64,000 nucleotides of DNA from a virus, in the IMG/VR virus record IMGVR_UViG_3300031215_000009, positions 17,442 to 81,441 of that record. One strand, given 5' to 3'. How positions within the stretch are numbered: position 1 is the stretch's first letter; every line of letters begins with the position of its first letter. Both the position numbers and the translations under genes were made by a program. The notes under the pieces were generated by a model that was not told the origin of the DNA, searched no databases, and was given only the letters and a program-made list of their open reading frames with translations. This document shows, piece after piece, positions 730 to 25,843 of the stretch.

Positions 730-1749
730 ATGAAATTCGAGACAACTCACTCGGGTAAAATATTAACTTTAGTTGACGCTTCTGTTTTAGAAAGAAAGCA
801 ATTAAGTTTATCTTTAACCAAAAAATTAGAATATTACAATTTCTTACCTCCAGCAGTTAAGAAAAGATGGAATGGAATTGTATCTTATTTCCACAAGGAT
901 AGATTTGTCCCTGTTGGTTTGTGGCAAGAATTAAAGTACATTGCAGAAACTTTCAAATTCCCATTAGAAATAACAGGACTTGGAGAAGCAATATTCTACA
1001 AAGATGTAACAAGAGATGAATTTCAAGATTGGGTAGATGATAAGTTTTTCGGTGCCGTTAATTCTAAAGGTGATGATTTTATTCCAAGAAAATATCAAGT
1101 TGATACTGCATACGCAATCTTAACTAATAAAATATCAGTTAGTGAATTAACAACAGCTGCAGGGAAATCTTTGATTATCTTTATTTGTATTGTTTATTTT
1201 CAAGAAACTGGTTTAGGAAAGAAATTCTTAATGATTGTACCATCTATTGATTTAGTAATACAAGCTTATGAAGATTTTAATGAATATAATAGTTTTTTAT
1301 TAGAAGATAATAGATTTCCATTGAATATCAAACAAATTCATGGGGGAGAAAAGAAAGACTTTATTGCATCACAAAATATACATGTTAGTACGTTTCAATC
1401 ACTTGCTAAATTTCAAAATCAATACTTCACTGTATTTGATACTGTTATTGTTGATGAGTGTTTACACCCAGACAGTTTAATCAAGATGGGAGATAATACA
1501 ACAAAGAAAATATCAGATGTAGTAATAGGAGATGAAGTTTGGACTACTAATGATATTACAGGAGATTTGGAAATTAATAAAGTAGATTATATTTATAAAA
1601 ATCTTTCAAGTCACGAACACTTATATGAATTGGAATTAGAGGATGGTTCGATATTAGAACTAACAGGAAATCACAAAGTAAAACTTTCTGATAAATCTTA
1701 TAAGAGAGTTGATGAATTGACAGGAAGTGAAGATATAATAACTTATTAA
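730..1749 (+). CDS. uvsW: UvsW SF2 helicase fragment 1 fused to split intein N-part (IntN 1459..1746, 96 aa)
   Basis: PRKYQ Q-motif, TAAGKS Walker A, VIVDE followed by CLHPDS (intein block A) and LTGNH (block B). Confidence 0.93.
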   Translation: MKFETTHSGKILTLVDASVLERKQLSLSLTKKLEYYNFLPPAVKKRWNGIVSYFHKDRFVPVGLWQELKYIAETFKFPLEITGLGEAIFYKDVTRDEFQDWVDDKFFGAVNSKGDDFIPRKYQVDTAYAILTNKISVSELTTAAGKSLIIFICIVYFQETGLGKKFLMIVPSIDLVIQAYEDFNEYNSFLLEDNRFPLNIKQIHGGEKKDFIASQNIHVSTFQSLAKFQNQYFTVFDTVIVDECLHPDSLIKMGDNTTKKISDVVIGDEVWTTNDITGDLEINKVDYIYKNLSSHEHLYELELEDGSILELTGNHKVKLSDKSYKRVDELTGSEDIITY

Positions 1750-1753
1750 ATAA

Positions 1754-2032
1754 CCTATAAAAAGTTTACAAGAAATTATAAATGAACAAACAGAAGCTAT
1801 TCATCAAGATACTGGGATAGAAGAAGGACAACGCAAAGATGTTGATGAAAAAGTAGAAAAGAAGAATCAACAGAATATAGATAAGTTCAAAGGTTTAGAA
1901 GTTTACTTAAAAGAAAATGACTACAAATTCCATTTAATAGATGAAGACTATTTTAGTGTTCAAGATTATTCTTCTTTGGAAAACCAACCAAATAAAAAAT
2001 TACTTAAAACCAGACTAAAAGCATTTATATGA
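1754..2032 (+). pseudogene. remnant of endonuclease gene between intein halves
   Basis: Open frame without ATG ending DKFKGLEVYLKENDYKFHLIDEDYF...KAFI*, like a PD-(D/E)XK/TnsA-type nuclease C-terminus; stop overlaps IntC ATG (ATGA). Confidence 0.5.
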
Positions 2033-2832
2033 AAATAAAGAAAATAACAAAAAAGAAATATAAAGGTGATGTTTATAATCTTAGAATAGATAGTGAAGAT
2101 GGAAACAATCATAATTACTTTGCTAACGATATTAATGTATCGAATTGTCATAGAACTAAGTCAAACACTATTAGAGAATGTATTAGTAAGTGTGTAAATG
2201 TAGAAAGACGTTTCGGATTAACAGGAACAACTCCAAAACAAGGTACTTTAGATAGTTTAACACTACAAGCATATCTTGGTCCCAAGGTAATAGAAGTTAA
2301 AGCAAAAGAATTACAAGACAAAGGAGATATTGCAGAAGTTGATATAGCAATTGTTGAATTGATTTACCCTGAAGAAATTCAAAAACGATTTGATGATATT
2401 AAAAAGAGTATGACAGGTGAAGACAAAGGAAAACTTCTTAAAATAGAACAAGATTTTATTATTAAGTACATTCCTAGAGTTGAATTAATTTCAAAAGTCA
2501 TTTCTAAAGTTCAAAAAAACCAATTAGTGTTGTTTCACAGACAAGCTTATGGTAAACAACTTAAAAAGTACTTAGAAGAAAATACAGATAAAGAAATATA
2601 TTTTATTTATGGTGAAACTAAGAAAGATGATAGAGCTGAGATTAAAAGATTGATGGAACATGATGTTATTGAAAAGGAAATAGATGCTTTTCGATTTGAT
2701 TCAGAAGGTAATAGTTATGAAATATCACACAATGAGTATATTAGATTAGTAAATGGTAAATCTATAAAGGTGTCAAATTTAAGTGAAAATGATGATATTG
2801 ATTTGAAAAGTATATCTAAATTTAAAGTTTGA
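2029..2832 (+). CDS. uvsW: UvsW fragment 2: IntC (39 aa, ends VSN) + helicase middle + degenerate half-Hint tail
   Basis: YNLRI..HNYFAN.INVSN|CH restores DECH motif II; GLTGT motif III; LVLFH motif IV; tail resembles second half of IntN. Confidence 0.92.
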   Translation: MKIKKITKKKYKGDVYNLRIDSEDGNNHNYFANDINVSNCHRTKSNTIRECISKCVNVERRFGLTGTTPKQGTLDSLTLQAYLGPKVIEVKAKELQDKGDIAEVDIAIVELIYPEEIQKRFDDIKKSMTGEDKGKLLKIEQDFIIKYIPRVELISKVISKVQKNQLVLFHRQAYGKQLKKYLEENTDKEIYFIYGETKKDDRAEIKRLMEHDVIEKEIDAFRFDSEGNSYEISHNEYIRLVNGKSIKVSNLSENDDIDLKSISKFKV

Positions 2833-2877
2833 ATCACAACTGGAGTAAATATATAAAATATATAAAATAGATATATT

Positions 2878-3819
2878 ATGAAAAATGATTTACTTAAATG
2901 TTTCCAAGAAAAACATGGAACTCCAGATAATGTAAATAAATTAAATGAATATGTTGATTTCCTCCTGACATATAAGTTAAATGAAACTGAATATACTGAA
3001 AATCATCATATATTAGATAGGGCATCATTCCCAGAATTTGAAAAAGAAGAATGGAATATTATAACATTAGACTATAAAGACCATATTAAAGTACATGAAA
3101 TGTTGTTTGAAGATTATAATATTAGAAGATACCAAAGAACTCTTACTTTCAAAGGAGTGAAAAAAGATTATAAGTTACTTTCTAATGCAGCAAAGAAAGG
3201 ATGGACTAAATTTAAAAACAACAAAGTAAAATATGATTTATTTTGTTTACGTAGAAGTGTAATAATGAAAACACTTTCGTCAGATGAACAATCAAGAAGG
3301 GGTAAATTATTTTGGGATAATTTATCAAGTGATGAATTAGAAAAATGGAAAATGAAATGTAATAAAGGTAGAACCAACGAATCAAAAATAAAACAAAAAG
3401 AATCAATTAATATTTATTATTCTAATCCTGATAATAGGGAAAAGAAATCTAAAGAAACAAAAGACTATTGGGATTCATTAAGTGAATCTAAAAGAAATGA
3501 TTTTAGAAAAAACATGAAATCTATAAATTCTAATGAAGATAAAAGAAAAGATGCAAGTGTAAAAATAAAAAATAAATGGCAAGACCCTGTTTTTCAAGAA
3601 AAAATGTCAAATAGAAAAACTAAACCAAAAAACAAATATGAATTGATATTTGAAGATGGTAATAAAGAAATAATAATTGGGTTTTCTGAAATGATAGAAA
3701 AATATAACTTAAATGCTACACTAATTAGAAAATTCTTAAATACGAAAACCAAAGTAGAATCTAAAAGTAAACGAGAACAAGCATTAAATACAATAGGATT
3801 AATAATAAACCAAATATAA
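2878..3819 (+). CDS. free-standing HNH homing endonuclease
   Basis: YTENHHIL..NIITL...HIKVH HNH motif followed by Lys-rich helical repeats; lies inside the fractured uvsW. Confidence 0.85.
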   Translation: MKNDLLKCFQEKHGTPDNVNKLNEYVDFLLTYKLNETEYTENHHILDRASFPEFEKEEWNIITLDYKDHIKVHEMLFEDYNIRRYQRTLTFKGVKKDYKLLSNAAKKGWTKFKNNKVKYDLFCLRRSVIMKTLSSDEQSRRGKLFWDNLSSDELEKWKMKCNKGRTNESKIKQKESINIYYSNPDNREKKSKETKDYWDSLSESKRNDFRKNMKSINSNEDKRKDASVKIKNKWQDPVFQEKMSNRKTKPKNKYELIFEDGNKEIIIGFSEMIEKYNLNATLIRKFLNTKTKVESKSKREQALNTIGLIINQI

Positions 3820-3820
3820 T

Positions 3821-4163
3821 ATGGCACAAATAACAAATTTAAAACACATAAAAAAGAAAGTAGAGGCTGCAAGAGTTCTTGTAGCCTCTTATTAGGTGCG
3901 GTACGTTATCGACAGGAATTAACATAAAAAATATCCATAATATTCACTTTACTGAATCGTTTAAATCAGATGTTATTGTAAGACAGTCTATTGGTAGAGG
4001 TTTAAGACAACATAAAGATAAAGATAAATTAAGAGTTTATGATTTTGTAGATTGTCTTAATACTGGAAAAGATAACATGTTAATGAATCATTCAAGAGTT
4101 AGACGAACAATCTACAAAGAACAACAATTTGATTATATTATCAAGAAAGTACATTTAATTTAA
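3821..4163 (+). CDS. uvsW: UvsW fragment 3 (motifs V-VI), interrupted by 7-nt insert TAGGTGC at 3893..3899
   Basis: MAQITNLKHIKKKVEAARVLVASY* then in +1 frame GTLSTGINIKNIH...VRQSIGRGLRQH...VYDFVD, matching UvsW VASYGxxSTG and QxIGR; missed by ORF track. Confidence 0.85.
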
Positions 4164-9076: not shown

Positions 9077-10003
9077 ATGAACAAATTATATGAAGGTGGA
9101 AATGCCGTTAGTAACGTTATGCCAATTAGAGCAGAAGATACAATACCTACTCTTAAAGATATAGACACTAAAATTTTATCAAGATTTTTAAAATTAAAGA
9201 AAAATGAATGGGCTGCGTTAGGTTCAACAGGTAAAAAGTTACCCGGACAATCAAGTGGCGATATTGATTTAGCAATTGATATTAATAAAATTGCAAAATC
9301 TTATAAAATACAAACTAATGAAGTTGGTCAAAAAATACTTGATTTATTAGATTCTGCATATCCTAAGATGGAAAAAAACTATATGAAAGGATTAGAAATT
9401 ATTTCATTAGCTTATCCAATTAAAGGTTCTGGTGGAAATGTTCAAGTAGATTTGATGTTACAAGACAATATTGATTTTGCAAAATGGATGTTTCATAGTC
9501 CTGATTTTACTAAACACGAGTCTGAATGGAAAGGTTTATATAGAACGGAATTACTAAAAGCAATTGGTAATGCTATTTCTATTCCAGAAATGACAGAATA
9601 TTTTGAAGATGAATTTGAAGGAAAATATAAAGGAACTATAAAGAAATTAGCAAGAAATATGTTAGATCCAAACAAAGGTTATAAGAAACAATTGAAATCA
9701 TTTGTTGGTAAAAAAGGAACACCTGTAAAAACTGGGAAAAGTGAATATGAAGAACTTATAAGTAAAGACCCAGAATTCATTACAAAAGCATTATTAGGTC
9801 AATCTGCAACTATCAAAGATACTAATTCATTCGAAACTGTATGGAAAGTAATGCAAAACAAAGATTTCCCATGGAAAGACCAACTGAATAAAATTGTAGT
9901 TAAATTTGCAGAGGTTCTTAGAGGTAAAGGTTTACCTATGCCAAAAGAACTTGGTATTTCAGAGAATTCTCGAATGAAAAAGTTTTCAGATATTAGACAA
10001 TAA
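9077..10003 (+). CDS. Pol-beta superfamily nucleotidyltransferase
   Basis: LGSTGKK..SSGDIDLAI (hGS..DxD) and VQVDLM third Asp. Confidence 0.8.
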   Translation: MNKLYEGGNAVSNVMPIRAEDTIPTLKDIDTKILSRFLKLKKNEWAALGSTGKKLPGQSSGDIDLAIDINKIAKSYKIQTNEVGQKILDLLDSAYPKMEKNYMKGLEIISLAYPIKGSGGNVQVDLMLQDNIDFAKWMFHSPDFTKHESEWKGLYRTELLKAIGNAISIPEMTEYFEDEFEGKYKGTIKKLARNMLDPNKGYKKQLKSFVGKKGTPVKTGKSEYEELISKDPEFITKALLGQSATIKDTNSFETVWKVMQNKDFPWKDQLNKIVVKFAEVLRGKGLPMPKELGISENSRMKKFSDIRQ

Positions 10004-10004
10004 A

Positions 10005-10039
10005 TTTGTTTAACTTAAATAAAAATCGTATATTTACAT
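10005..10039 (+). promoter_or_regulatory. Bacteroidota housekeeping-sigma-like promoter
   Basis: TTTG ... CGTATATTTAC, resembling -33 TTTG / -7 TAnnTTTG. Confidence 0.5.
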
Positions 10040-10065
10040 AATATACAAAACTAAATTAATAAAAA

Positions 10066-10470
10066 ATGGCAGGACTACAACACTTATTCGATATTTATAG
10101 TAAACAAGGAAACGAGTTTATACAAGATATGTTTAGTAAACAATTAATTGTATCGGAAAAACCAGATGGTTGTCTAAAATATGATACTATTTTAGAAACC
10201 GAAGATGGATTAAAGACAATACAAGAAATATGCGAAACTCAATACAAAGGTAAAGTTAAATCATATTGTATAGAAACTAATAGTATAGTTTGGGATTGTA
10301 TAATAAATCATCTAATAAAGGAAGACCTTTCAAAAGTATGGTTTGAATTAGAATCTACCAATGGACAAATAATAACAGTAACTGGCAACCATAAAATATA
10401 CTGTTCAGATTTAAAAATGTGGAAAAGAGTTGATGAATTAGATGGTACCGAATTGTTATTGTTTAAATAA
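10066..10470 (+). CDS. ATP-dependent (RNA) ligase-like enzyme, N-extein (35 aa) + IntN (99 aa)
   Basis: SEKPDG motif I followed by CLKYDT block A and VTGNH block B. Confidence 0.88.
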   Translation: MAGLQHLFDIYSKQGNEFIQDMFSKQLIVSEKPDGCLKYDTILETEDGLKTIQEICETQYKGKVKSYCIETNSIVWDCIINHLIKEDLSKVWFELESTNGQIITVTGNHKIYCSDLKMWKRVDELDGTELLLFK

Positions 10471-10539
10471 AGAAAGGGTATCATAGGAATTGTAGTTCCT
10501 CGCCCTTTCTTTAAAATAATTATTAACTAATGTATTTAA
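10463..10539 (+). promoter_or_regulatory. endonuclease-associated promoter/bulged-hairpin cassette, copy A
   Basis: TTAAATA + TAAAGAAAGGGT/GCCCTTTCTTTA stem with inner AGGAAT-TGTA-GTTCCT, then ATGTATTTAA. Confidence 0.75.
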
Positions 10540-10589
10540 CACACTAAAAGAATGTCCAATTTGCAAAAAGAAAATGAAATTTTTTGTAG

Positions 10590-10753
10590 GTAGACCGTGA
10601 TGTAAATGCCGCTTGTAACATAAAATCTTTTACTTTAAAAAATATCTTGAGTACGGAACATACTCTTAAAAATCAAGGTAAGTTGCCAATATTAGTTGGA
10701 GCGTTAACCCTTGAAGCCCATCCCATCACCTCTGGCGTGGGTGGGTAGTTCAC
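10590..10753 (+). mobile_element. tnpB: IS200/IS605-family remnant: tnpB 3' end and right end (omegaRNA region)
   Basis: Frame from 10593 reads DRDVNAACNIKSF...EAHPITSGVGG*; terminal hairpin GAAGCCCATCCCA..TGGGTGGGTAG ending TTCAC. Confidence 0.8.
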
Positions 10754-10872
10754 TAGTTCTTTGGGAAACATATATAAATAATGCGAGTGATTCGGAATTA
10801 TTAAATACAATAACTAAAATAATATCAAATGGAAATAACGAAAATAAAATCTATAAAGAAATTAGACAATAA
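10754..10872 (+). pseudogene. C-terminal remnant of Vsr/DUF559-like endonuclease
   Basis: VLWETYINN.. resembles VIWEKDF of the intact nuclease at 24288; CPIC zinc-finger remnant at about 10553. Confidence 0.5.
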
Positions 10873-12052
10873 ATTTACTTGTTATGACATAACAACGGAA
10901 AAAACCCATAATTTCTTTGCTAATGAAATATTAGTTCACAATTCGTCATTTTCAGCACAACAAAGAGAAGATGGTGGTATGGATTTCTTTAAAAGAGATG
11001 ATAGACAACCAATATCTAAATTAGACAGAACAATAATGTCTTTATATGAACCACCAATTGAATTCATCGAAAAACAAATAGGTGATAAAAAGATTCCATC
11101 AAATTTAAGATTTGGATTTGAATATTTTCAAAATACTAAACCAGTTGCAATATCTTATGATGTATTACCTAAGAATGGACTTGTGTTAACACACATGAAA
11201 GAAATGAATGATAAAGGTAAAGTAACAAAATTTATTGATGATCCAAAAACTTTGAATAAATGGGCGAAATACTTTAATGTAGAGAACCCTTTTATCATTT
11301 TTGATGGTAAGTTAAGTCAATTACAAAAAGAACAATTAGAAGAGTTCCTTAACACACCATTCGAAGACTTAGTTGCTAAGTTTAAAACTTCATCGTTTAC
11401 TAAATACATTGTTTCTATTTTAAATCCAAAATTAAAAAAAACAGCACTAAATAATACTCTTGATAAACCAATTGAAGGATTAGTGTTCAAATTTAATGAT
11501 GGTGAGTATCTGGCAAAAGTAGTTGACCCAATGTTTACTCAAATGGCAAGAGATAAGGCAAATGCAAGACACGCTGAAAAAAAGAATAATAAACAAAGTT
11601 CTGATGAATTTGGATTAGTTCTTTATACTTTTATTAATTGGATAGAAGAAAATCAAATATTTAAAGATTTCATTGCAGATGGTGATAATGAAGATGAAAA
11701 ATATGTTGATTTAATGACAAGAATTGCAAAGCGTTTTATTGACGAAAATGCTATATTCTTAAAAGGATTGAATATCAAAAAACCAGATTTTGCTAAAGCA
11801 CCAGAATTTGCATTGAATACTAAAATGATTAAAAATAAAGAAGTTGTAGATTTCATAAATAAAAATAGAAACCAAGAAGAAATATTCAAAATTTTGTTAT
11901 CTGGGTTTAGGAAACTTAGAAAACGAAAAACTAATATGATTGATGAAAATTTGATGAAACAAATCAATTCAGTTGTAAATCAAATAAGAACAATTACAAA
12001 AAAAGTAAACGAAGAATTTCTTTCATTTTCAGATTGGAAGAAAACATTGTAA
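10829..12052 (+). CDS. ligase-like enzyme: IntC (38 aa) + C-extein
   Basis: YDITT..HNFFANEILVHN|SS; FGFEYF (motif III), IEGLVFK (motif IV), LAKVV (motif V). Confidence 0.88.
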   Translation: MEITKIKSIKKLDNKFTCYDITTEKTHNFFANEILVHNSSFSAQQREDGGMDFFKRDDRQPISKLDRTIMSLYEPPIEFIEKQIGDKKIPSNLRFGFEYFQNTKPVAISYDVLPKNGLVLTHMKEMNDKGKVTKFIDDPKTLNKWAKYFNVENPFIIFDGKLSQLQKEQLEEFLNTPFEDLVAKFKTSSFTKYIVSILNPKLKKTALNNTLDKPIEGLVFKFNDGEYLAKVVDPMFTQMARDKANARHAEKKNNKQSSDEFGLVLYTFINWIEENQIFKDFIADGDNEDEKYVDLMTRIAKRFIDENAIFLKGLNIKKPDFAKAPEFALNTKMIKNKEVVDFINKNRNQEEIFKILLSGFRKLRKRKTNMIDENLMKQINSVVNQIRTITKKVNEEFLSFSDWKKTL

Positions 12053-12078
12053 TTAAATACTAAAAATAACATAATATT

Positions 12079-12459
12079 ATGGCTAAGAAAAAAGAAGTGA
12101 TTAACAAAGAAGTAACAAAAGTTGTTGATGAAGTGACAATTGAAGAAACTTCGGTAACTGAAGAAAAAGTTGAAGAAAAAGTTGAAGAAAAAGTTGAAGA
12201 AAAAGTTGAGGAAAAAGTTGAAGAAAAAGTTGAAGAAAAAGTTGAAGAAAAAGTTGAAGAAATAGATGTAGATATTACTATCGAAAACCCGGTTAAAGAA
12301 ATAATTGTAAATGCTGTTATTGAAAATCCAAATTCTAAAAAAGTTGAAGGTAAAGGTAAAATTGTTAAATTATCACATAGAGTTGCAGTTTACGAAGATG
12401 GTACAGAACTAAAAATCACAAGTAAAAAACAACACGCTGAATTAAGAAAGCAAAGATAA
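12079..12459 (+). CDS. hypothetical protein with EEKV repeats
   Basis: ORF with late promoter; tandem 12-bp repeat. Confidence 0.65.
   Translation: MAKKKEVINKEVTKVVDEVTIEETSVTEEKVEEKVEEKVEEKVEEKVEEKVEEKVEEKVEEIDVDITIENPVKEIIVNAVIENPNSKKVEGKGKIVKLSHRVAVYEDGTELKITSKKQHAELRKQR
12160..12261 (+). repeat. 12-bp tandem repeat GAAGAAAAAGTT (about 8 copies)
   Basis: visible directly. Confidence 0.9.
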
Positions 12460-12502
12460 ATAACTACTACCATGTATGTAAAAGCCCTGTATGTAGTTTA
12501 AT

Positions 12503-12532: not shown

Positions 12533-12565
12533 GTTTGTATTAAATAAGAAAACAAATATTATCAA

Positions 12566-16254: not shown

Positions 16255-17763
16255 ATGATATTAGATATTGAACAAACAAAATACACCAATTCGGTAAAAA
16301 TTTCTTATATTGATGCAAACAGGAATAGACAAATTCTTGACATTCCTAAAAGAGATTTTTGGAAATGGAAGTATAATGAAGGTGCAAATGCAGATTCTAC
16401 TTTTAAATCTTGGGATAACAAAGGAGTTGTTAGGTGTTCATATAAAGATTCTGATAATATAGACAAGAAAAGTATATGGGAATGGATCAATGCACAACCA
16501 GAATACAAAGACTTGTTATATCAATTCAATATACCAAAGATTCTTTTTTGTGATATTGAAACAGATATTCATGATGGATTTCCAGATGTAACTTTAGCAA
16601 AAGAAAAAATTACTTGTATTACCGTTTGTTATAAAGATGATAAAGGTGTTGTACAAGTAATAATTTTAGGTGAAAAGGAAAACTTTGATTACGACAAACA
16701 AAAGAAAATGAATGATTTCATTGCTGATTATTTTTCAAAAATATCAGATTTGAAATTTGTATTGAAATATGTATTTATTCCAGATGAAAAGAAATTATTA
16801 GAATCATTTGTTAAGATTTGTTCTAAGTTTCACGTTTTAACTGGTTGGAACTTTATTAATACCTTCCGTTCAAAGTGGTTTAATGACAGTGGATTTGATT
16901 GGCCTTTCTTATCAAAGAGAATGGAAAACTTAGGAGTTGATTACAGATCAATTTCACCAACAAGAAACATTGCAAAGAAAAAAGATGTTGGTAATGTACC
17001 AAGTCACTTTGCAGTTGTTGATTATATGTATTACTTTGATGCATTTGATAGAAGTATTAAAGTAAAAGAATCTAAATCATTAGACTTTGTTTCTGGGGAA
17101 GTTCTTAAAGTTAAGAAATTAAAATATGGAAACTATCCAGTAATGGATGGTGATGTTCTTAAAGAAATGTATGATAAAGATTATTATACTTATTGTTTAT
17201 ATTGTGCCGTAGATACTATTTTAGTTCTATTAATACACGAAAAAAGACAACCATTCTCAGCAATCTTAGCACAAGGTAATGATTCCGGTAATCATATCGA
17301 CAAAGCAGATTCTGCTGTAAATGTTACAGAAGGATTTATGTCTAAGGCTTACTATAAGGACAACAAAGTAATGCCAATGATTGATATGACTAAAAGGAAA
17401 AAAGAATGGTATGAAGGTGCCTTTGTGAAGGCCCCTTTAGCAGGTTTACACGAATTAACATGTTGTTATGACTTTAGTTCACTATATCCATCAATATCAA
17501 GATTCTTAGAATTAGGATTTGAAAACTTTGATAGAAAATTAACAGATGATTTGAAAAAGTATGTAAACTATAAACCAGTTTCACTTAAATTAGAAAGACC
17601 AAAGAATGATGAGATTGTAAGTGTTACCGGTTGTGTATTCAAAAAAGGTGAATCAACATTAAAAAAAGTTTATGATGAATTGTACGCTGCAAGGAAAAAT
17701 AATCAATACCGAGCAAAATTATGTGCAAAAATCGCTCATGAATTAAAAGAAAAAAGTAAATAA
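16255..17763 (+). CDS. gp43: family B DNA polymerase fragment 1 (exonuclease + motif A)
   Basis: CDIET ExoI, TGWN..FDWPF ExoII, YCAVDT ExoIII, YDFSSLYPS motif A; ends in fingers helix. Confidence 0.93.
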   Translation: MILDIEQTKYTNSVKISYIDANRNRQILDIPKRDFWKWKYNEGANADSTFKSWDNKGVVRCSYKDSDNIDKKSIWEWINAQPEYKDLLYQFNIPKILFCDIETDIHDGFPDVTLAKEKITCITVCYKDDKGVVQVIILGEKENFDYDKQKKMNDFIADYFSKISDLKFVLKYVFIPDEKKLLESFVKICSKFHVLTGWNFINTFRSKWFNDSGFDWPFLSKRMENLGVDYRSISPTRNIAKKKDVGNVPSHFAVVDYMYYFDAFDRSIKVKESKSLDFVSGEVLKVKKLKYGNYPVMDGDVLKEMYDKDYYTYCLYCAVDTILVLLIHEKRQPFSAILAQGNDSGNHIDKADSAVNVTEGFMSKAYYKDNKVMPMIDMTKRKKEWYEGAFVKAPLAGLHELTCCYDFSSLYPSISRFLELGFENFDRKLTDDLKKYVNYKPVSLKLERPKNDEIVSVTGCVFKKGESTLKKVYDELYAARKNNQYRAKLCAKIAHELKEKSK

Positions 17764-17808: not shown

Positions 17809-18597
17809 ATGAAAAAAGTAGTATTAAAAACAGTAGACTTAGTAAAGTTCAATAGCTTTATAGATTCTTTAATCCCACTTAGTGAATCGGGAACAATATA
17901 TTTCAAGATTGATTCAGAAGGATTAAGTACAGATTCACACAATAGTAGTGGAACTATTATTAAAAGTTTGAGAACAAGTATAGGTGAAATTTGTGGTGAA
18001 AGCAACTTAGATAAAGTTGAAGGACCAATTAAATTTTGTTTCTATGATGGTAAAAAAGTAAAAAAAGCATTTTCATTCCTAAGTGGTAGTGATATTAAAT
18101 GTGAAATTACATTTCAAAAATTAGATTCAACAGGTGAATTGTTTGCAGAATCTATGAGAGTTTCAAGTCCTAAAATATCATTTACCTTAGATGCAGCAGA
18201 CCCTGATTTATTCGAATTTGCAAATGTACCAGCAGAATCTATTGCAGAGGTAAAAGATGTAACAAATGCTGATTGTAACTTTAGAATGACAGCAAATGAA
18301 ATTTTACAAGTTCAAAAGTTTTTTGACTTTGATACAAATGAAGAAGTTGAATTTCAAGTTAATGGTGAAGTAAGAGTTGTTTCTGAAGGTGCATATAATA
18401 TTGCAATATCAGATGATTTTGAAGGTTTATCAGGTGGTGGAACAAATTCTTATAAAGTTTCAAAAGACTTGTTTAAATTGTTAGATTTCAACACTTATAT
18501 AGTTTATCCATTGATAGATGAATGTAAAATCATTTTCGAAGCAGAAGATAAAACATCAGAAGTAGTACTTACCTTACACGAAGATTTAGAATTGTAA
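17809..18597 (+). CDS. gp45: sliding clamp (gp45-like)
   Basis: about 260 aa acidic alpha/beta two-domain pattern, located within polB locus. Confidence 0.65.
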   Translation: MKKVVLKTVDLVKFNSFIDSLIPLSESGTIYFKIDSEGLSTDSHNSSGTIIKSLRTSIGEICGESNLDKVEGPIKFCFYDGKKVKKAFSFLSGSDIKCEITFQKLDSTGELFAESMRVSSPKISFTLDAADPDLFEFANVPAESIAEVKDVTNADCNFRMTANEILQVQKFFDFDTNEEVEFQVNGEVRVVSEGAYNIAISDDFEGLSGGGTNSYKVSKDLFKLLDFNTYIVYPLIDECKIIFEAEDKTSEVVLTLHEDLEL

Positions 18598-18620
18598 AAT
18601 TTGGGAATATAAAAGTATTT

Positions 18621-18700
18621 GATTAAATAAAGAAAGGAACTATAATAGGACTCGAATCCTAAGTTCCTTTCTTTAAAATAATTAAACTTAATGTATTTAA
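18621..18700 (+). promoter_or_regulatory. endonuclease-associated promoter/bulged-hairpin cassette, copy B
   Basis: GATTAAATA + TAAAGAAAGGAACT/AGTTCCTTTCTTTA, inner TAGGA-CTCGAA-TCCTA, then ATGTATTTAA. Confidence 0.8.
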
Positions 18701-18780
18701 CACACACCCAAATAATCCCAAATTCTGGAGGATTGTATCAAATAAGAAATAAAAATTTCAATAATTATAAATACATTTGA
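18691..18780 (+). pseudogene. GIY-YIG endonuclease N-terminal remnant
   Basis: MYLTHTQIIPNSGGLYQIRNKNFNNYKYI* (GLY..YI); stop abuts polB fragment 2 ATG. Confidence 0.6.
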
Positions 18781-19521
18781 ATGATTAAAATAAGAGATAT
18801 GACAACTGATGAAATAGAGAACTTTGATTATAGTTCTCTATCAGAATCTGAGAAAGCCAATATCATTAGGGAACTAACTGACGAAGCAGCAATCAAAGGT
18901 ACACTTGAACAATCTAATAAATTAGTTCTTAACTCTATTTATGGTTCGATGGCATCTATATTTTTCTATTTTTATAATAAGAGTTTAGCGGAAACAATAA
19001 CAGGACAAGGACAAGATGCTATTCGATATGCTGAAAGGGCAGTTGATTCTTATTTTCAAAACATTTTACACAAAGATAAATTTATTCTTAATAAATTAAA
19101 AGAAATTTGTCCAGATGTGAATGTAACCCCCGAACCTTGTGTTAAACCAACAGTTGTTTATATTGACACAGATAGTGTTGATAAAGATACTATTATTAGT
19201 ACAAATAAAGGAAATATTAGAATAGAAGATTTGTATAACGAAAATTCTATTAATGCAGGGGGAACCAAAAGTGGGCACGAATCTGTTGAAACTAACAGAA
19301 CAGTATTGAATTGGTCAGAAACTAATGGACTTTATCAAGCACCAGTAAAAAGAATTATTAGACACAAAGTATCTAAAGCAAAATGGAAACTTAAAACTAA
19401 ATCTGGAAAAGAAGTAACTGTAACTAACGACCACTCTATGATTGTATTTAGAAATGGGGTTAAGATAGAAGTTAAACCATCTGAAATATTAAAAACCGAT
19501 AAAATATTGTCAATTAGGTAA
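18781..19521 (+). CDS. gp43: PolB fragment 2 (motif B, YIDTD) + Ser1 IntN (19174..19518, 115 aa)
   Basis: KLVLNSIYG motif B; YIDTD|SVDKDT; VTNDH block B. Confidence 0.93.
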   Translation: MIKIRDMTTDEIENFDYSSLSESEKANIIRELTDEAAIKGTLEQSNKLVLNSIYGSMASIFFYFYNKSLAETITGQGQDAIRYAERAVDSYFQNILHKDKFILNKLKEICPDVNVTPEPCVKPTVVYIDTDSVDKDTIISTNKGNIRIEDLYNENSINAGGTKSGHESVETNRTVLNWSETNGLYQAPVKRIIRHKVSKAKWKLKTKSGKEVTVTNDHSMIVFRNGVKIEVKPSEILKTDKILSIR

Positions 19522-19565
19522 CTTTGTAGTTTATATAGATTAAATTTAGAAAGTCTATATAAAAT

Positions 19566-19766
19566 ATGAATTTAAAAGAACAAATAAAAGGATTTAGAAA
19601 TAGAGAGATAAATTACATAGTGCGAATATGTGATATATTAGAATTTGATAGTTGCATAGTAACGGGAGAATCTATAATATATCCAAATACTAAAATTAGA
19701 CAACACAAAGACGGTGAAATTTACTTAGAAAATGAAATACGAAATAGAAGAAATAGAATACATTGA
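19566..19766 (+). pseudogene. internally deleted ORF between intein halves (probable endonuclease remnant)
   Basis: position typical of fractured-gene endonucleases; hairpin 19530..19563 covers its leader; overlaps IntC start. Confidence 0.4.
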
Positions 19767-20685
19767 GTGTATAGGAGAATTTGATGATGAATATGTTTAT
19801 GATATAGAAGTTGATGATGATACCCATACATTTATTGCAAATGATATATTGGTTCATAATTCTGCTTATGTGACTTTTGAAGAAGTTGCAAAGAAAATCA
19901 ATTGGACAGGTTCAGCAACGGATTTAGTACTTACTATCAATAAACACAGACTAGAATCTTATTTAAAGAAAGTGTTTGAAAAGTATGCTGAATCTTATAA
20001 TACTGAAAATTATTTAGATTTTGAATTAGAAACAATCAGTAAATCGGGTATTTGGGTAAAGAAAAAGAAATATACACAAGACATTGTGTGGGCTGATGGT
20101 AAGTTCTATGATAGTGGTAGTTACACAAAAACAACAGGATTGGAGATCATTAGATTAACTACACCTCCATTTTGTAGACCAGAATTAGTTAAATTAGTTC
20201 AATGGATATTCGATAAAGGTAAACAATTTACACAAAGAGATATTACAATTGAATTGTTGAAATTAAAGAAAAGATTTGCAATTGTTGACATTGAAGATAT
20301 TAGTATTACAACAGGAATAGGTGATTATGAAAAATATATTCTTAGTGACACTAATGGGTTAAAAGTTGCAAGTGGTTGTGGAACTCACATTAGAGGAGCA
20401 GGGATTTATAATATGTACCTTAATAACAATCCAGATTATGAAAATAAGTATGAAAGATTAAAAACAGGTGACAAAGTTAAGTGGTATTATGCAAAATCAC
20501 ACAAAGAAGAATTAAATGTTTTTAGTTACAAACGTGGTTCACACCCTAAAGAGTTTGCACCAGAAATAGACATTGATTTGATGTTTGAAAAAACAGTGAT
20601 AAACCCACTAAATAATATTCTTCAAGCAATGCCAGGGATTAATGCATTATCTGGTTCATTGAAGATCAAAAAAAGATTATTTTAA
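19732..20685 (+). CDS. gp43: PolB fragment 3: IntC (43 aa) + palm/thumb
   Basis: VYDIEV..HTFIANDILVHN|SAYV restores YIDTDSAYV motif C; KKKKY; GLEIIR. Confidence 0.93.
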   Translation: MKYEIEEIEYIECIGEFDDEYVYDIEVDDDTHTFIANDILVHNSAYVTFEEVAKKINWTGSATDLVLTINKHRLESYLKKVFEKYAESYNTENYLDFELETISKSGIWVKKKKYTQDIVWADGKFYDSGSYTKTTGLEIIRLTTPPFCRPELVKLVQWIFDKGKQFTQRDITIELLKLKKRFAIVDIEDISITTGIGDYEKYILSDTNGLKVASGCGTHIRGAGIYNMYLNNNPDYENKYERLKTGDKVKWYYAKSHKEELNVFSYKRGSHPKEFAPEIDIDLMFEKTVINPLNNILQAMPGINALSGSLKIKKRLF

Positions 20686-20702: not shown

Positions 20703-21011
20703 ATGGCAAAAACAAGTAAAAAACATAGTTCCGTTGATGATATATTCAAAGAACTTAACGAAGTTAATCCTTTTGGTAGTAGTAGTTTCGGTACCTCAGA
20801 GATTTATAAAAACAACAACTGGATTGATTCTGGTAATTGGATTCTTAATGCAGCATTAAGTGGTTCAATTAAAAAAGGGTTTCCAAGTACTAAACAAACA
20901 TCATTAGTAGGAGAATCTGGTTGTTTACCGAAAGAAGAAGTTGTTCGATTATATATACTAAAGAGTATAGATAATTATGATAGAGAAATTATTAACGAGG
21001 AACATATCTAA
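20703..21011 (+). CDS. uvsX: UvsX/RecA N-extein + very short IntN (29 aa)
   Basis: IDSGNWILNAALSG..GFP..LVGESG|CLPKEE. Confidence 0.9.
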   Translation: MAKTSKKHSSVDDIFKELNEVNPFGSSSFGTSEIYKNNNWIDSGNWILNAALSGSIKKGFPSTKQTSLVGESGCLPKEEVVRLYILKSIDNYDREIINEEHI

Positions 21012-21052
21012 CACTAAATCTTTATTTTGTGTTAAGGACGAAAACAAAAAAT

Positions 21053-22525
21053 ATGAAAATAGAAATTATTAAAAAAGAGTTAACTCATTGTGGATATGAC
21101 ATCGACAAGTTAACTGATGGGGAATTAACTAAGTTATTCAATACTCATTGCGAAGAACATTCTGAATTAGTTAAAGTACAAGATTTAATTGAAAATAAAC
21201 TATCTAACTTTATAGTTATAGATACACCAGATGGATTTCAAGAAATTAGTACTATTTATAATAAAAAGGAAAGACCTATATATGAAATAGTATTGACTAA
21301 TGGATTTAAAGGACTATCTTCTAATGACCACTTATATGAAACACCAACTGGATGGGTTAAAGCCGAAGTACTTAAAAAATCTGATTTAGTATTGACTAAA
21401 GATGGAGTTTACGAGGTATCTACTATAAATAAAAAAGACAAAGAATTAGTATATGATTGGACAGTAGAACACGAAAACCATAGATACTGGTCTGGTGTTG
21501 GAGGTATTAGTTCCCATAATAGCGGTAAAACATTCTTAACACTTAACGCTGTAAGGAATGCACAATTAGCTGGTTACACACCAATTTATTACGATACAGA
21601 AGGTGCTGTTGACCCTGATAGTTGTTTGAATTTCGGTATTGATTTAAAAAACTTTAGACACGAACCAGTTTCGGAGATTGAAAAGTTGAAAACAATGTAT
21701 GCTATTTTCATCAAGAACTTAACCGCATTGAAAATCAAAGGACAAGAAATTCCTAAATTTATTCTGATTCTTGATTCAATCGGAATGGTTGCATCATCAA
21801 AAGAAATAGAAGATGCAAGAACTGGAAATAGTGCCGCAGATATGACAAGAGCAAAACAAATACGTTCGTTCTTTAGAATTATCACATCAGATTTGAATTC
21901 ATTAGGAATTCCAATGATATTCACAAACCATACAATGGTAAACATTGGTGGTTATGGAGACCCAGTTGTTCAAGGTGGTGGAGGTGGTGTTGTTTATTCC
22001 CCAAGTATCACATTATACTTATCAAAAGCAAAATTGAAAGATGATAAGAATGATGATAAAAGACAAACAGGTGTAATTGTAACAGCCAAGACCGGAAAGA
22101 ATAGATTTGCACAACCTAAAACTATTAAGTTTCCTATATTCTTTGATAGACCATTCAACAGATATATGGGTGTTCAAGATTATCTAAGTTGGGATAATGT
22201 AGGAATTGCAAAAGGAAATCTATTAACAAAATCTGAATATAATAAACTTAAAGGACAAGCAAAAGAAAAGATAAAAGTTTTTACACCAGACAACTCAGAT
22301 GAAATAATGTATTTCGCACCAAAAGAAACAGCGAGAAAATATGTTGTTGAACATTTAGGCGAAGCAATCGACACGAGACAATTATTTTCTGAAAGAGTTA
22401 TGAAACCATTAGAAGATAGATTTGATGCTGTAATTAGAAAAGATTTCGAATTTAGTTCACAAGAAACCGATGAAGAAATTGAAGAAATACTTCACAATGA
22501 TGATGAAGAACTAAACGAAGATTAA
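21053..22525 (+). CDS. uvsX: UvsX/RecA: long IntC (156 aa) + C-extein
   Basis: SSNDH block B, VYDWTV..SSHN|SGKT restores Walker A GESGSGKT; YYDTEG, ILDSIG, FTNH. Confidence 0.92.
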   Translation: MKIEIIKKELTHCGYDIDKLTDGELTKLFNTHCEEHSELVKVQDLIENKLSNFIVIDTPDGFQEISTIYNKKERPIYEIVLTNGFKGLSSNDHLYETPTGWVKAEVLKKSDLVLTKDGVYEVSTINKKDKELVYDWTVEHENHRYWSGVGGISSHNSGKTFLTLNAVRNAQLAGYTPIYYDTEGAVDPDSCLNFGIDLKNFRHEPVSEIEKLKTMYAIFIKNLTALKIKGQEIPKFILILDSIGMVASSKEIEDARTGNSAADMTRAKQIRSFFRIITSDLNSLGIPMIFTNHTMVNIGGYGDPVVQGGGGGVVYSPSITLYLSKAKLKDDKNDDKRQTGVIVTAKTGKNRFAQPKTIKFPIFFDRPFNRYMGVQDYLSWDNVGIAKGNLLTKSEYNKLKGQAKEKIKVFTPDNSDEIMYFAPKETARKYVVEHLGEAIDTRQLFSERVMKPLEDRFDAVIRKDFEFSSQETDEEIEEILHNDDEELNED

Positions 22526-22917: not shown

Positions 22918-24240
22918 ATGATAAACACTAATGAATTTGAGAAGATATTTTTACTGTACGCATTGCAAACACCTGTCTATTTAGAACCAGTTGAACAAGG
23001 GTTCTTTTCCGTACCAGAAATAGATTTACTTGCTACCCTATCAAAAAGGTATTACAAGAAATATAAAATTGCACCTACAAAAGATAACTTGTGGATGCTT
23101 ATTTCAACAGGAGAATTAGAACAACGATGTCCTAAAGTATTTTTTGATGAAATATTTAAGAAAAAAATAGAATCTTATGATATTGCTTGGGTAGAAGAAA
23201 CAGCTCAATCGTGGATCAAATGGAAACATTTAGACTCATCTATCATTGATACAGTTGAATATATCAATACTGTAAAGGTTACACCTGAAAATGTTAGTTC
23301 TATTGTTGATGATGTTAAAAATATGATTAATGGTAGAAACAATATTACTTTTGATGATGATTTAGGTTCAGATTTCTTTGATACAAAATCTCACGTTCGT
23401 GACCCACAAGATTTATTAAGTTCTAATTATGATTTCTTAGACAAAAACCTTGGTGGGCACTCTAAAGGAACATTAAATGTTTATGTTGCACCACCAAACA
23501 CAGGAAAATCGTTATTCTTAGCACAAGATGCTGCTAATTATATGAAAGCAGGTAAAAATGTATTGTTTATCTCATTAGAAATGGGAGGACAAAAGGTTCA
23601 TAAAAGAATTGGTTCAGATATTTTCAATATTGCTATGAGTGATTATGATAACAAAGCAGATGATACTGATTTCATGCATCGCAAAATTTCTGAATTCAAA
23701 GCACATAGTATAATTGAACCAGGTGCATTAACAGTAAAGAATTACGAAACAAGTAATGCAACTGCCGATGATATTGATAATTTTATTGGTAAAGTTCAAG
23801 ATATTACAGGATTAGTTTATGATGTTGTAATAGTGGATTATATTAATATCATGAAAGATATTAGAAATCCTAATTCAGAATCAACATACATCAAGATTAA
23901 AAACATTTGTGAAGATTTAAGAGCAGTTGCTCAAAGAAGACATGTAGTTCTTTTAAGTGCAACACAAACTAACAGATGTTTAAGTTTAGATACTAAAGTA
24001 CAAACTAAAGAGGGAGAAATGGAAATATCTAAAATAAAAGAAGGTGACTTTATTATGGGAACAGAAGATTGGGTTAAAGTTACTAAAGTTTACCCAATAG
24101 AAACACTACCTAAAGTATTGAAACTTAAAACCAAATCAGGAAAAGAAATTGTTTGTGGTCATAATCACTTATTCCCAATAGGAGATAAATTAGTAAAAGC
24201 ATCCGACTTAGTAATTGGAGACAAATTAACAAGTAAATAG
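22918..24240 (+). CDS. gp41: gp41/DnaB replicative helicase N-extein + IntN (23977..24237, 87 aa)
   Basis: APPNTGKS Walker A, ISLEM, IVDYI, SATQTNR|CLSLDT; CGHNH block B. Confidence 0.93.
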   Translation: MINTNEFEKIFLLYALQTPVYLEPVEQGFFSVPEIDLLATLSKRYYKKYKIAPTKDNLWMLISTGELEQRCPKVFFDEIFKKKIESYDIAWVEETAQSWIKWKHLDSSIIDTVEYINTVKVTPENVSSIVDDVKNMINGRNNITFDDDLGSDFFDTKSHVRDPQDLLSSNYDFLDKNLGGHSKGTLNVYVAPPNTGKSLFLAQDAANYMKAGKNVLFISLEMGGQKVHKRIGSDIFNIAMSDYDNKADDTDFMHRKISEFKAHSIIEPGALTVKNYETSNATADDIDNFIGKVQDITGLVYDVVIVDYINIMKDIRNPNSESTYIKIKNICEDLRAVAQRRHVVLLSATQTNRCLSLDTKVQTKEGEMEISKIKEGDFIMGTEDWVKVTKVYPIETLPKVLKLKTKSGKEIVCGHNHLFPIGDKLVKASDLVIGDKLTSK

Positions 24241-24287
24241 GTGTTTGTGTTGCAGATAATAGTTTTTGAGTAAATAGTATTGTATAA

Positions 24288-25487
24288 ATGTCATATATTA
24301 TGAAATCAAAAACTATTAAAAATAACATACAAAAAATCATAGAGCAAGACAATTATAATAAATCAAATGTCGAAATTAATTTTCGTAGATTGTTAGTATT
24401 CTTTAGATTCTTTGAAAAAAATATTAGATTCGTCCAGATATATCAAACAACAAAGAAACTTCAATTATTAAAAAAACTATATTATATGTTTCAATACAAT
24501 ATAGAAATAGAAACATCTACAAATTTAGATGAAAAATGGACAAATTTATTGTCTTTGTCATCTAAAGATAGTTCATCTATTGAATATCATACTATCATAT
24601 ATGGACAAAAATTAGGTAAGGTTATACAAGAAAACAAATCAAAGAAAACTGCAATTACTGTTAATAATTTTATTAACAAGGTAGGTACTCTTTATAAAAA
24701 TATCGAAGAAGCCAAAGTAGCATATAGAAATAGTAGAAATGGAACAAGTGATGTAAAGTTTAAAGAAAAATTTGGAACGAACTGGAAGGAACACAAACAA
24801 GAGTATTTAGACAGGAAACGACATAAACAATCAGTAGAGTATTTAGGGGAAGATGAATACAATAAAAGAAAAGAATATCACAAATACTATAATACGAAAG
24901 ACGGATATATCAAAAAGCATGGATTTGTAAAGGGATATGGTTTATGGAAAAGTAAAAATAATAATATTAGAAAGTCTAATAAATTATTAACACACAACCG
25001 AGATAATAATAGTTTACCTGCACATATTCAAAGATATGGTATATTCAAAGGTAACCAAATATATAAAAATCTTTGTTCAAAACAAAGACAAATATCAATA
25101 GTAAATGAATCGTATAAATATTTTGGTAAAAATAATGGTGCTATTAGTAAAATATCAATGGTATTATATGATATGTTAATTCCATTTATTGATAATATAG
25201 AATGTGAGTTTAAAATAAATAGATATTATTTTGACTTTAAGATAGGTAAGACTATTATAGAGTTTAATGGTGACTATTGGCACTGCAATCCTATGATTTA
25301 TGAACATGACCAATTAGTAAAATTTCCAAATAGAACAATACCCGCTAATACTAAATGGGAAGAAGATAAAAAGAAAATTAAAGTTGCTAAAGATAATGGA
25401 TATGATGTTATTGTTATTTGGGAAAAAGATTTTAGAAATAATAAACAAAAAGTATTACAACAATTAAAAAGAATATTATGTATTTAG
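24288..25487 (+). CDS. Vsr/DUF559-like homing endonuclease between intein halves
   Basis: FDFKIGKTIIEFNGDYWHCNP...GYDVIVIWEKD; N-terminal helical repeats. Confidence 0.85.
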   Translation: MSYIMKSKTIKNNIQKIIEQDNYNKSNVEINFRRLLVFFRFFEKNIRFVQIYQTTKKLQLLKKLYYMFQYNIEIETSTNLDEKWTNLLSLSSKDSSSIEYHTIIYGQKLGKVIQENKSKKTAITVNNFINKVGTLYKNIEEAKVAYRNSRNGTSDVKFKEKFGTNWKEHKQEYLDRKRHKQSVEYLGEDEYNKRKEYHKYYNTKDGYIKKHGFVKGYGLWKSKNNNIRKSNKLLTHNRDNNSLPAHIQRYGIFKGNQIYKNLCSKQRQISIVNESYKYFGKNNGAISKISMVLYDMLIPFIDNIECEFKINRYYFDFKIGKTIIEFNGDYWHCNPMIYEHDQLVKFPNRTIPANTKWEEDKKKIKVAKDNGYDVIVIWEKDFRNNKQKVLQQLKRILCI

Positions 25488-25843
25488 ATGAAATAATAGA
25501 AATAGAAACAATAGACAATATAGATACCGTAGATATTGAAGTATCAGGTAAAGATAGATTATTTTATGCTAATAATATTTTAACTCACAATAGTGGTTTT
25601 GAGAGTTCAAATATTAATATGGGAATGATTGCAGAATCAGCTGGTTTAGCAGCAACTTGTGATACTATCATGGCAATTATTCAAACACCTGATATGAACC
25701 TAGAAGGATTCTATTGGTTGAAACTATTAAAAGTTAGAGATGGTTCCGGTAAAGGAATAAAGTGTAAAATTGATATAGATTATGAATACATGAGATTGCA
25801 CGAAACCAACACGGTATTGTTTGACGATGGTAGTGGTGAATAA
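25478..25843 (+). CDS. gp41: gp41 helicase IntC (38 aa) + C-extein
   Basis: VDIEVSG.RLFYANNILTHN|SGF; IAESAGLAATCD; LLKVRDG. Confidence 0.93.
   Translation: MYLDEIIEIETIDNIDTVDIEVSGKDRLFYANNILTHNSGFESSNINMGMIAESAGLAATCDTIMAIIQTPDMNLEGFYWLKLLKVRDGSGKGIKCKIDIDYEYMRLHETNTVLFDDGSGE

Follow-up and report, generated by a model that had tools for sequence, protein, structure and literature searches.

The DNA analyzed in this work, referred to below as the window, is a stretch of 64,000 nucleotides (nt) that comprises bases 17442-81441 of the 81,441-bp IMG/VR virus record IMGVR_UViG_3300031215_000009. The region studied here, window positions 730-25843, contains five genes, coding for a superfamily 2 (SF2) helicase putatively of the UvsW type, an RNA-ligase-like enzyme, the DNA polymerase PolB, the recombinase UvsX, and a gp41/DnaB-like helicase, each of which is interrupted by a split intein. 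One open reading frame (ORF) of each pair encodes an N-extein fused to the intein's N-terminal portion (IntN), and the other one encodes the C-terminal part (IntC) fused to the C-extein. This arrangement had been proposed in a previous reading of the bare sequence (hereafter, the sequence-only reading), and the translations bear it out, with all five pairs located where they had been predicted. Judging from residues, motifs, and relatives, these are very probably five separate naturally split inteins with canonical residues, which sit in conserved motifs of replication, recombination, and repair proteins and would represent mobile selfish cassettes at different stages of gene fracturing.

The source of the window is an uncultured salt-lake phage. 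Every public sequencing run that holds the sequence carries the label of a salt lake metagenome (9 rows in total, belonging to 9 studies), and no RNA run is found among the listed ones. The record, whose completeness is estimated by CheckV at 26%, has a G+C content of ~28% and carries nearly all of its genes, including those of the five split loci, on the + strand. The nearest named phages show only ~30% identity in PolB. As relatives, we used eight IMG/VR loci (L001 to L008) that share the first piece of the PolB gene with the window at 65 to 80% identity, of which L003 and L006 appear to be one phage. Further relatives of the UvsX intein come from more distant phages (L011, L013, and L014).

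In the SF2 helicase gene, the N-extein (730..1458; 243 aa, with Pfam ResIII and DEAD matches), which is colinear with the intein-less helicases of L008 and L004, ends in the VDE of motif II and is followed by a 96-aa IntN (1459-1746, with the stop codon 1459..1749) that starts with Cys1, contains the TGNH motif, and matches TIGR01445 and Pfam Hint. After a 279-nt spacer, a 39-aa IntC (2029..2145), aligned with the other four IntC and ending in VSN, leads to Cys+1 at position 2146, the C of the DECH box. In the ligase-like gene, a 35-aa N-extein ending in EKPDG (10066-10170) and a 99-aa IntN with Cys1 and TGNH (10171-10467) share the ORF 10066..10470; a 358-nt spacer (10471..10828) separates it from the ORF 10829..12052, which consists of a 38-aa IntC ending in VHN (10829-10942) and the C-extein from Ser+1. 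The second piece of PolB, from motif B to YIDTD, is encoded together with a 115-aa IntN (19174-19518; Ser1, TNDH) in the ORF 18781..19521 and, after a 210-nt spacer, is followed by the ORF 19732..20685, in which a 43-aa IntC ending in VHN (19732-19860) precedes the third piece, starting from Ser+1 (SAY). The UvsX intein is split in an atypical way, with a short IntN that lacks block B and a long IntC that contains it: the ORF 20703..21011 encodes a 73-aa N-extein ending in GESG and a 29-aa IntN with Cys1 (20922-21008), whereas the ORF 21053..22525, only 41 nt downstream, encodes a 156-aa IntC (21053-21520) with an SNDH block B and the terminal SHN, followed from Ser+1 by the SGKT of the Walker A motif and the RecA domain. 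Finally, the ORF of the gp41/DnaB-like helicase (22918..24240, from the ATG at 22918, with a GTG at 22891 also opening it) encodes the N-extein with a DnaB_C match and an 87-aa IntN with Cys1 (23977-24237). A gene for a 399-aa endonuclease (24288..25487) comes next, and then the ORF 25478..25843, with a 38-aa IntC ending in THN (25478-25591) and the C-extein from Ser+1.

The first residue, with its position fixed by intein-less alleles, is Ser in the PolB intein and Cys in the other four. The block B His is present in all five, in three cases accompanied by Thr (helicase, ligase, and PolB), and every IntC ends in Asn followed by Cys or Ser at position +1, with the penultimate His found in four of them. 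In a six-frame search, the TIGR01445 (intein N-terminal) profile scored above the cut-off at four of the five IntN (helicase, 29.4 bits; ligase, 36.4; PolB, 42.7; gp41, 25.6), leaving the 29-aa UvsX IntN undetected, and TIGR01443 (intein C-terminal) did so at the ligase (31.9 bits) and PolB (36.9 bits) IntC. At E<=0.01, Pfam Intein_splicing or Hint domains were recognized in 7 of the 10 ORFs; most of these matches stay under the gathering score, since each ORF contains just one half of the domain. No Pfam intein match was obtained for the ORFs with the IntC of the helicase and of gp41 or for the one with the UvsX IntN. Hidden Markov models (HMMs) trained on these halves recovered the helicase IntC at E 9e-16, although this half belonged to the training set, and did not find a sixth intein in the 81,441-bp record (next-best E values, 0.064 and 0.64). 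The host proteins are recognized by Pfam (ResIII, DEAD, and half of Helicase_C; DNA_pol_B; RecA; DnaB_C), and their intein-less relatives carry the PHROG names DNA helicase, DNA polymerase, UvsX-like recombinase (phrog_97), and DnaB-like replicative helicase. For the first of these, the helicase family matches, the DECH box, and motifs V and VI identify an SF2 enzyme; the name UvsW is the label of the sequence-only reading.

Empty sites and the separation of the halves

The insertion points were compared by running 19 window pieces by tblastn against the eight relatives. ORFs were read in L001, L002, L004, and L008 (as well as, for the helicase, in L005 and L007), and the other loci were scored from same-frame contiguous tblastn coordinates. 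The helicase site is covered by four loci and the ligase site by seven, all of them intein-less, with no split or contiguous form. Among the eight loci that cover the PolB motif C site, five are intein-less, two (L001 and L002) are split, and one (L008) has a contiguous intein. The UvsX site is likewise covered by eight loci, six intein-less and two split (L002 and L008), and the gp41 site by six, five intein-less and one split (L002), neither site showing a contiguous form. The statement of the sequence-only reading that each junction rebuilds a conserved motif is confirmed by the intein-less relatives, which read VDE-CHRT in the helicase, KPDG-S in the ligase-like protein, DTD-SAY in PolB, GESG-SGKT in UvsX, and QTNR-A/M in gp41. 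At the last of these sites, Ser at position +1 is found in intein-bearing alleles only.

The halves are separated by stops and by spacers of 41 to 1237 nt, in which several stops lie. If these stops were assembly or sequencing errors, or were read through in an alternative genetic code, the inteins would really be contiguous and splice in cis. The UvsX halves, 41 nt apart and in different frames, could be fused by one indel at ~20993-21011, and contiguous forms of two inteins do exist in relatives: the PolB intein of L008 is part of one 564-aa frame, and in P0015, a ligase-like protein of 542 aa, the KPDG|C...HN|S site is likewise occupied by a mini-intein that is contiguous. Relatives also carry the same splits, in independent contigs and with other spacers. 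L001 and L002 share the split of the PolB intein with spacers of 77 to 78 nt, and P0020 (404 aa) has the same form of ligase IntC with its extein. The short UvsX IntN recurs in L002, L008, L011, L013, and L014, so that, counting the window, the atypical split point is identical in six contigs, four of which have the halves separated by an endonuclease gene of ~1.3 kb. An alternative genetic code was rejected, since each of the three stop codons is found within the spacers.

Sequencing runs were checked using low-depth Logan contigs from four runs over a 20-kb stretch of the window that does not extend to the gp41 locus; none of the listed pieces is shown to span 21009-21053. Contigs of other runs are identical to the window over 1700-2371 (run X1) and 3511-4020 (run X2) and differ by one substitution over 10676-11239. 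The only indel reported among the four runs is at position 18624, with none at any intein junction. It counts against this part of the case that X1 is possibly the sample behind the window assembly, and its contigs are therefore not independent. High-depth Logan joints with sides of 22 to 24 nt (e.g., 3325>18748) resemble repeats of other organisms and were set aside. Together, the independent relatives with the same splits and different spacers and the matching contigs exclude sequencing error and recoding, so that erroneous stops between the halves, one of the refutations named in the sequence-only reading, are hardly credible.

Endonuclease genes and additional breaks in the host genes

The sequence-only reading also referred to an intervening endonuclease, which applies to the gp41 intein, with its intact gene, but not to the other four. 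The 399-aa product of this gene has a Vsr-like C-terminus and matches phrog_22677, with an additional weak match annotated as endonuclease. The gene starts 47 nt past the stop of IntN and overlaps the start of IntC by 10 nt; its leader folds no better than shuffled sequences. Only the last 69 aa of this endonuclease are retained in L002. The C-terminus of the 399-aa protein is related (E 7e-4) to endonucleases encoded inside the UvsX inteins of relatives. In those, the halves flank an intact gene of 416 to 429 aa, counted from the first Met, that is a 423-codon frame in L008 and encodes 419 to 429 aa in L011, L013, and L014, where the UvsX IntC is 39 to 47% identical to that of the window. In L002, the UvsX spacer of 394 nt holds a C-terminal endonuclease remnant. 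Within the window, the endonuclease gene is absent from the UvsX (41-nt spacer), PolB, and helicase inteins, and tblastn with seven endonuclease proteins revealed no remnants in the helicase (1750-2028) and PolB (19522-19731) spacers. A different kind of gene neighbors gp41 in L001, where a GIY-YIG/I-TevI-like endonuclease gene just 3' of the intein-less gp41 is followed by a duplicated gp41 3' end (16584-17598 of that locus). This arrangement suggests intronless homing at gp41 as well.

The spacer of the ligase-like intein contains an endonuclease-gene leader hairpin, a stub ORF, and decayed coding remnants. The leader belongs to an ~80-nt element that is present in three copies (10463-10545, 18618-18705, and 26386-26475) and consists of a strong stem-loop (z -4.2 to -7.2; -4.25 in the ligase spacer), an A/T spacer, and an ATG with a short stub ORF. 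This element probably represents what preceded free-standing endonuclease genes, now decayed, as their leader. A 51-codon frame at 10590-10742 is similar to the C-terminus of TnpB/Cas12f-like proteins (PF07282), with E 0.31 over 10 profile positions, a score that does not establish a TnpB-like remnant. Contigs with depths of 70 to 250x map near 10668-10735, compared with 3 to 10x elsewhere, and a short piece is therefore common to the window and something abundant in the lakes. At all examined gene starts, those of the IntC ORFs included, the leaders are A/T-rich and Shine-Dalgarno-like sequences are absent, which would suit a Bacteroidota-type host.

The identification of the protein that hosts the ligase intein is tentative. 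No Pfam, PHROG, or PDB profile was matched by the window protein or by its relative without the intein. Among 18 aligned homologues, 8 match RNA_ligase (PF09414; best E 7e-6), 1 matches DNA_ligase_A_M, and 6 have a fused cytidylyltransferase-like domain. The EKxDG motif is kept in the window, and its residues are conserved in most homologues (E in 18/18, K in 16/18, D in 12/18, and G in 13/18). Given this weak family evidence, "RNA-ligase-like" is as far as the naming can go. In the region 9077-15052, the gene adjoins another one (12566-15052) that encodes an N-terminal cytidylyltransferase-like domain, and distant homologues fuse both in a protein of ~640 aa.

Two of the host genes are more fragmented than the sequence-only reading had it. 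In the helicase, the intein joint is one of three breaks, and the gene is in four segments. The middle extein (2146..2832) contains the first half of Helicase_C only; it breaks off after motif IV at ~2658, at a point where relatives continue directly into motif V. It is followed by a gene for a free-standing HNH homing endonuclease (2878..3819; phrog_12434, E 3e-15) that forms the second break, without any intein, and is not present in the helicase gene of L004, L005, L007, or L008. The 3' part (3821..4163) starts with a 24-codon ORF (3821-3892) ending in the first half of motif V. Then comes a 7-nt insert with a TAG codon (3893-3899), after which motifs V and VI continue in the +1 frame (3900-4160). 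A 12-bp hairpin (z -3.8) ends just upstream of the insert, which could be a case of translational recoding or of very recent inactivation; its sequence is reproduced in the second run, X2. As a candidate for the HNH-associated break, a group I intron was rejected, since no Rfam intron match was found at E<=1 in 1-28000, a search in which a large-ORF intron could be missed. The fragments flanking the HNH gene bear a 57-aa C-terminal tail (2659-2832; no Pfam match) and an ~18-aa N-terminal head (3821-3874), neither of which has a counterpart in relatives. In phage Aeh1, nrdA-a/mobE/nrdA-b is reportedly a gene in pieces associated with an endonuclease, and by analogy with Aeh1 NrdA, the tail and the head may help the helicase pieces assemble.

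In PolB, too, the intein joint is present, but the protein is in three pieces, with a further, intein-free break between motif A and motif B. Piece 1 (16255..17763), which comprises the exonuclease domain and motif A (Pfam DNA_pol_B_exo1 and DNA_pol_B; phrog_262), ends with a plain stop. It is followed by a 262-aa ORF (17809..18597) that matched no Pfam or PHROG family and gave only chance-level PDB matches. This layout of piece 1, the 262-aa ORF, and piece 2 is common to all eight relatives, with the two polymerase parts covering complementary stretches of phrog_262 (positions 105-496 and 495-837 of 856).

Selection, cassette transfer, and decay

The intein halves of PolB and UvsX are under purifying selection. 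Ratios of nonsynonymous to synonymous substitutions (dN/dS) in the PolB intein were 0.16 for IntN and 0.04 for IntC in the comparison with L001 and 0.27 and 0.08 in the comparison with the contiguous form of L008; for the UvsX IntC, the value was 0.33 (versus L008), and the exteins showed 0.05 to 0.24, all of these figures resting on short segments and single pairs, which lessens their weight.

Some of the five inteins might nevertheless no longer splice, with their halves serving just as non-covalent clasps, or they might lie in a host gene that is a decaying pseudogene. We consider this improbable; the prime candidate is the helicase. Its gene has two breaks beyond the intein, and there is no start codon downstream of the stop in the 7-nt insert. 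Its IntC lacks the penultimate His, and no close relative of its intein was found in IMG/VR. On the other hand, the segment after the insert, 3900-4160, shows a dN/dS of 0.10 versus L004, similar to the rest of the gene. The combination of helicase N-extein and IntN is common in metagenomes: in a search restricted to proteins of 186 to 594 aa, in which contiguous forms could not appear, 77 other protein clusters (213 to 383 aa) shared this architecture, with 47 to 62% identity in the intein part. The catalytic positions are filled in all five inteins, and selection acts on those of PolB and UvsX. Still, several observations weigh against the interpretation of the whole set as working split inteins. 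Block B has no Thr in gp41 (GHNH) and UvsX (SNDH), the helicase IntC ends in SN instead of HN, the gp41 IntN reached only 22.1 bits in the per-protein TIGR01445 scan (cut-off, 24.5), and TIGR01443 missed three of the five IntC. Moreover, the helicase gene has the extra stop and frameshift at 3893-3899, which were also seen in a second run, so that the helicase may not function and its gene may be on the way to loss regardless of the intein.

Relative to L001, divergence of the PolB intein is roughly on a par with that of its exteins (proportion of synonymous differences [pS], 0.46 to 0.55 versus 0.62 to 0.63). The comparison with L002 is a mosaic, in which islands of near identity stand in a backbone of 70 to 85% identity (extein pS, 0.49 to 0.65). 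The gp41 cassette with IntN, the endonuclease gene, and IntC (23953-25608) differs by 2 mismatches outside the 24263-25247 deletion of L002, its IntC being 100% identical and the flanking extein 82%. The UvsX intein (20919-21531) has 4 mismatches, with a 358-nt insert of L002 at 21048. The PolB intein is ~95% identical (18 mismatches in IntN and 1 in IntC), compared with 99 to 100% for the gp41 and UvsX cassettes, and an endonuclease-gene leader of 118 nt (18587-18704) shows zero mismatches. The islands stop 3 to 24 nt before and 11 to 30 nt after the intein ends. Such islands in a diverged backbone are the footprint of recent and precise horizontal transfer and indicate that the gp41, UvsX, and PolB cassettes were acquired in this way. 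That the window and L002 carry different deletions shows that the endonuclease genes decay rapidly.

Across close relatives, the states observed are no intein, a contiguous intein (PolB and ligase), a split intein with an intact Vsr-like endonuclease gene (UvsX), a split intein with a remnant, and a split intein with none. On this scale, the window inteins would correspond to a split with an intact endonuclease gene in gp41, a split with the leader and remnants in the ligase-like gene, and a split from which the gene is gone in UvsX, PolB, and the helicase, and the cassettes would move between co-occurring related phages. The UvsX cassette is ~99% identical between the window and L002, with identity ending 3 to 11 nt outside the intein and backbone synonymous sites near saturation, even though its endonuclease gene is gone here and only a remnant is left in L002. 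This suggests either mobilization in trans, i.e., by the endonucleases of related cassettes, or very fast decay of the endonuclease after each invasion. We can offer only as a tentative and rather unlikely proposal that split inteins continue to spread as precise cassettes among co-infecting salt-lake phages after losing the endonuclease gene that belonged to them. If so, a phage could gather a co-resident set of five, only compatible (charge-swapped and non-cross-reacting) inteins would stack up, and such genomes would act as natural filters for orthogonal intein sets.

Trans-splicing, orthogonality, and relation to known systems

All five split inteins are real and most probably functional, and they belong to a well-known kind. 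We infer that the halves are co-expressed, pair, and splice. Each half-gene would be translated separately, and IntN and IntC, attracted in part by their opposite charges, would associate and form a single HINT domain. Splicing would then proceed through an acyl shift at Cys1 or Ser1, transfer to the +1 Cys or Ser, cyclization of Asn, and an acyl shift back to a peptide bond, with an intact enzyme as the product. It is plausible that replication and recombination depend on trans-splicing, as was suggested in the sequence-only reading; each of the five host genes was found only once in the 81-kb record. A further point on the opposing side is that, with the record ~26% complete, intact paralogues could be encoded elsewhere in the genome.

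The same reading held that the five pairs must be mutually orthogonal, a claim that is too firm as worded. In a stronger version, strict orthogonality would be kept by selection because cross-splicing would be lethal, and we put the chances of this at slightly below even. Identity between the different inteins is low (22 to 40% for IntN and 20 to 49% for IntC), and the charges of the halves differ in polarity: IntN is acidic in the helicase and the ligase-like protein (-10 and -5), with a slightly basic IntC (+3 and +1), whereas in PolB and gp41, IntN is basic (+8 and +2) and IntC is acidic (-14 and -7). According to the available text of PMC7090010, distant inteins are mostly orthogonal, with 15 of 24 tested split forms mutually so, and cross-reaction occurred mainly with atypically split inteins, the type to which the UvsX intein belongs. 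The closest pairs in the window fall within a charge class, namely, the helicase and ligase IntN (40% identity) and the PolB and gp41 IntN (36%, plus a shared 9-residue stretch). The two charge classes are thus compatible with little cross-talk between them, and cross-talk within a class is possible. Some cross-reaction may simply be tolerated, and since inteins arrive by horizontal transfer, the set would be an accident of invasion rather than a co-evolved design.

These data reveal no new mechanism. For intein biology, they place most states of a previously described model of fractured-gene formation on closely related genomes, and the sharp-edged identity islands provide direct sequence evidence of the exchange of split-intein cassettes among co-occurring phages. 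The matched contiguous and split forms of the PolB and ligase inteins are a natural experiment on the adaptation of inteins to splitting. For protein engineering, the sequence-only reading presented the five as a natural set for orthogonal splicing tools. They are less new than that implied, as three members are related to the tool inteins gp41-1, Aes123 PolB1, and VidaL; what they add is new natural variants of the gp41-1-like, Aes PolB-like (Ser1/Ser+1), and VidaL-like atypical families, together with two little-characterized inteins, in the SF2 helicase (DE|CH) and in the RNA-ligase-like protein (KPDG|S). We found no paper on five split inteins in one phage genome or on a UvsW split intein in a search that did not extend to subscription journals.

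Among solved structures, the gp41 IntN is closest to gp41-1 (6QAZ/6RIZ; E 1e-11 over 67 residues), the PolB IntN to 9HTH, an entry for Aes123 PolB1 (E 7e-9), and the UvsX IntC to VidaL (6VGV; E 6e-8), whereas the helicase and ligase IntN gave weak matches only, to DnaB and DnaE inteins. VidaL is presumably located in UvsX as well. The gp41 intein resembles gp41-1 in its host, a gp41/DnaB-like phage helicase, in similar lengths of IntN and IntC, and in the acidic IntC, but about half of the aligned residues differ, and block B here is GHNH. The native C-extein starts with SGF here and with SSS in gp41-1 (PMC7090010, available text), so the insertion points may differ.

Like the Aes123 PolB1 intein of T4-like Aeromonas phages, described in PMC11923092 as naturally split (120 + 39 aa), active, and cysteine-less, the PolB intein of the window (115 + 43 aa) interrupts a phage PolB and uses Ser1 and Ser+1. 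In contrast to it, the IntC here has a non-catalytic Cys, the match spans ~59 residues, and a relative (L008) has the contiguous form. The PolB IntN also has the RH pair, in line with the Arg-His motif that PMC10189870, in the text available, gives as typical of Ser1 inteins. The UvsX intein shares with VidaL (6VGV/6VGW; PMC11923092 and PMC10189870, in part) the short IntN and the long IntC with block B. Its IntN, at 29 aa, compares with the 15 to 25 aa stated in PMC11923092 to be usual for atypically split inteins, and its IntC has ~35 N-terminal residues more than that of VidaL. The intein-free breaks, between PolB pieces 1 and 2 and at the HNH gene of the helicase, resemble the splits of Aeromonas phages and Aeh1, in which the pieces assemble non-covalently; gene 43A/43B of phages 25 and 44RR is such an intein-free polymerase split (PMC2988022, as far as its available text goes). 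They differ in that a conserved 262-aa gene lies between the PolB pieces and in that a split intein is additionally present further along these genes.

That the fractured-gene kind, including gp41-type inteins, is already known was correctly noted in the sequence-only reading: in the portion of PMC2677866 available, Dassa and coworkers (2009) describe 27 such loci from ocean metagenomes, with hosts that include gp41 helicases and a DNA ligase as well as, at one locus, a terminase whose IntC is unusually long. In these loci, a noncoding gap of 27 to 51 nt precedes the endonuclease gene, the 3' end of which overlaps the start of IntC, and hairpins occur in the leader; the 47-nt gap and 10-nt overlap of the gp41 locus in the window fit this pattern. 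They also include, as the window does, an atypically split case and one without an endonuclease (gp41-7). UvsX, PolB, and SF2 helicase are not among the eight host types given there, and the endonuclease gene is kept here at only one locus of the five. The model put forward in that work, as its available text describes it, leads from a mini-intein through endonuclease invasion to endonuclease loss, and the relatives analyzed here supply the empty, contiguous, and decayed states that it postulates. The element is of a known kind; what sets this case apart from the loci in PMC2677866 is its density, with five split inteins within 25 kb, on one contig and in their genome context.

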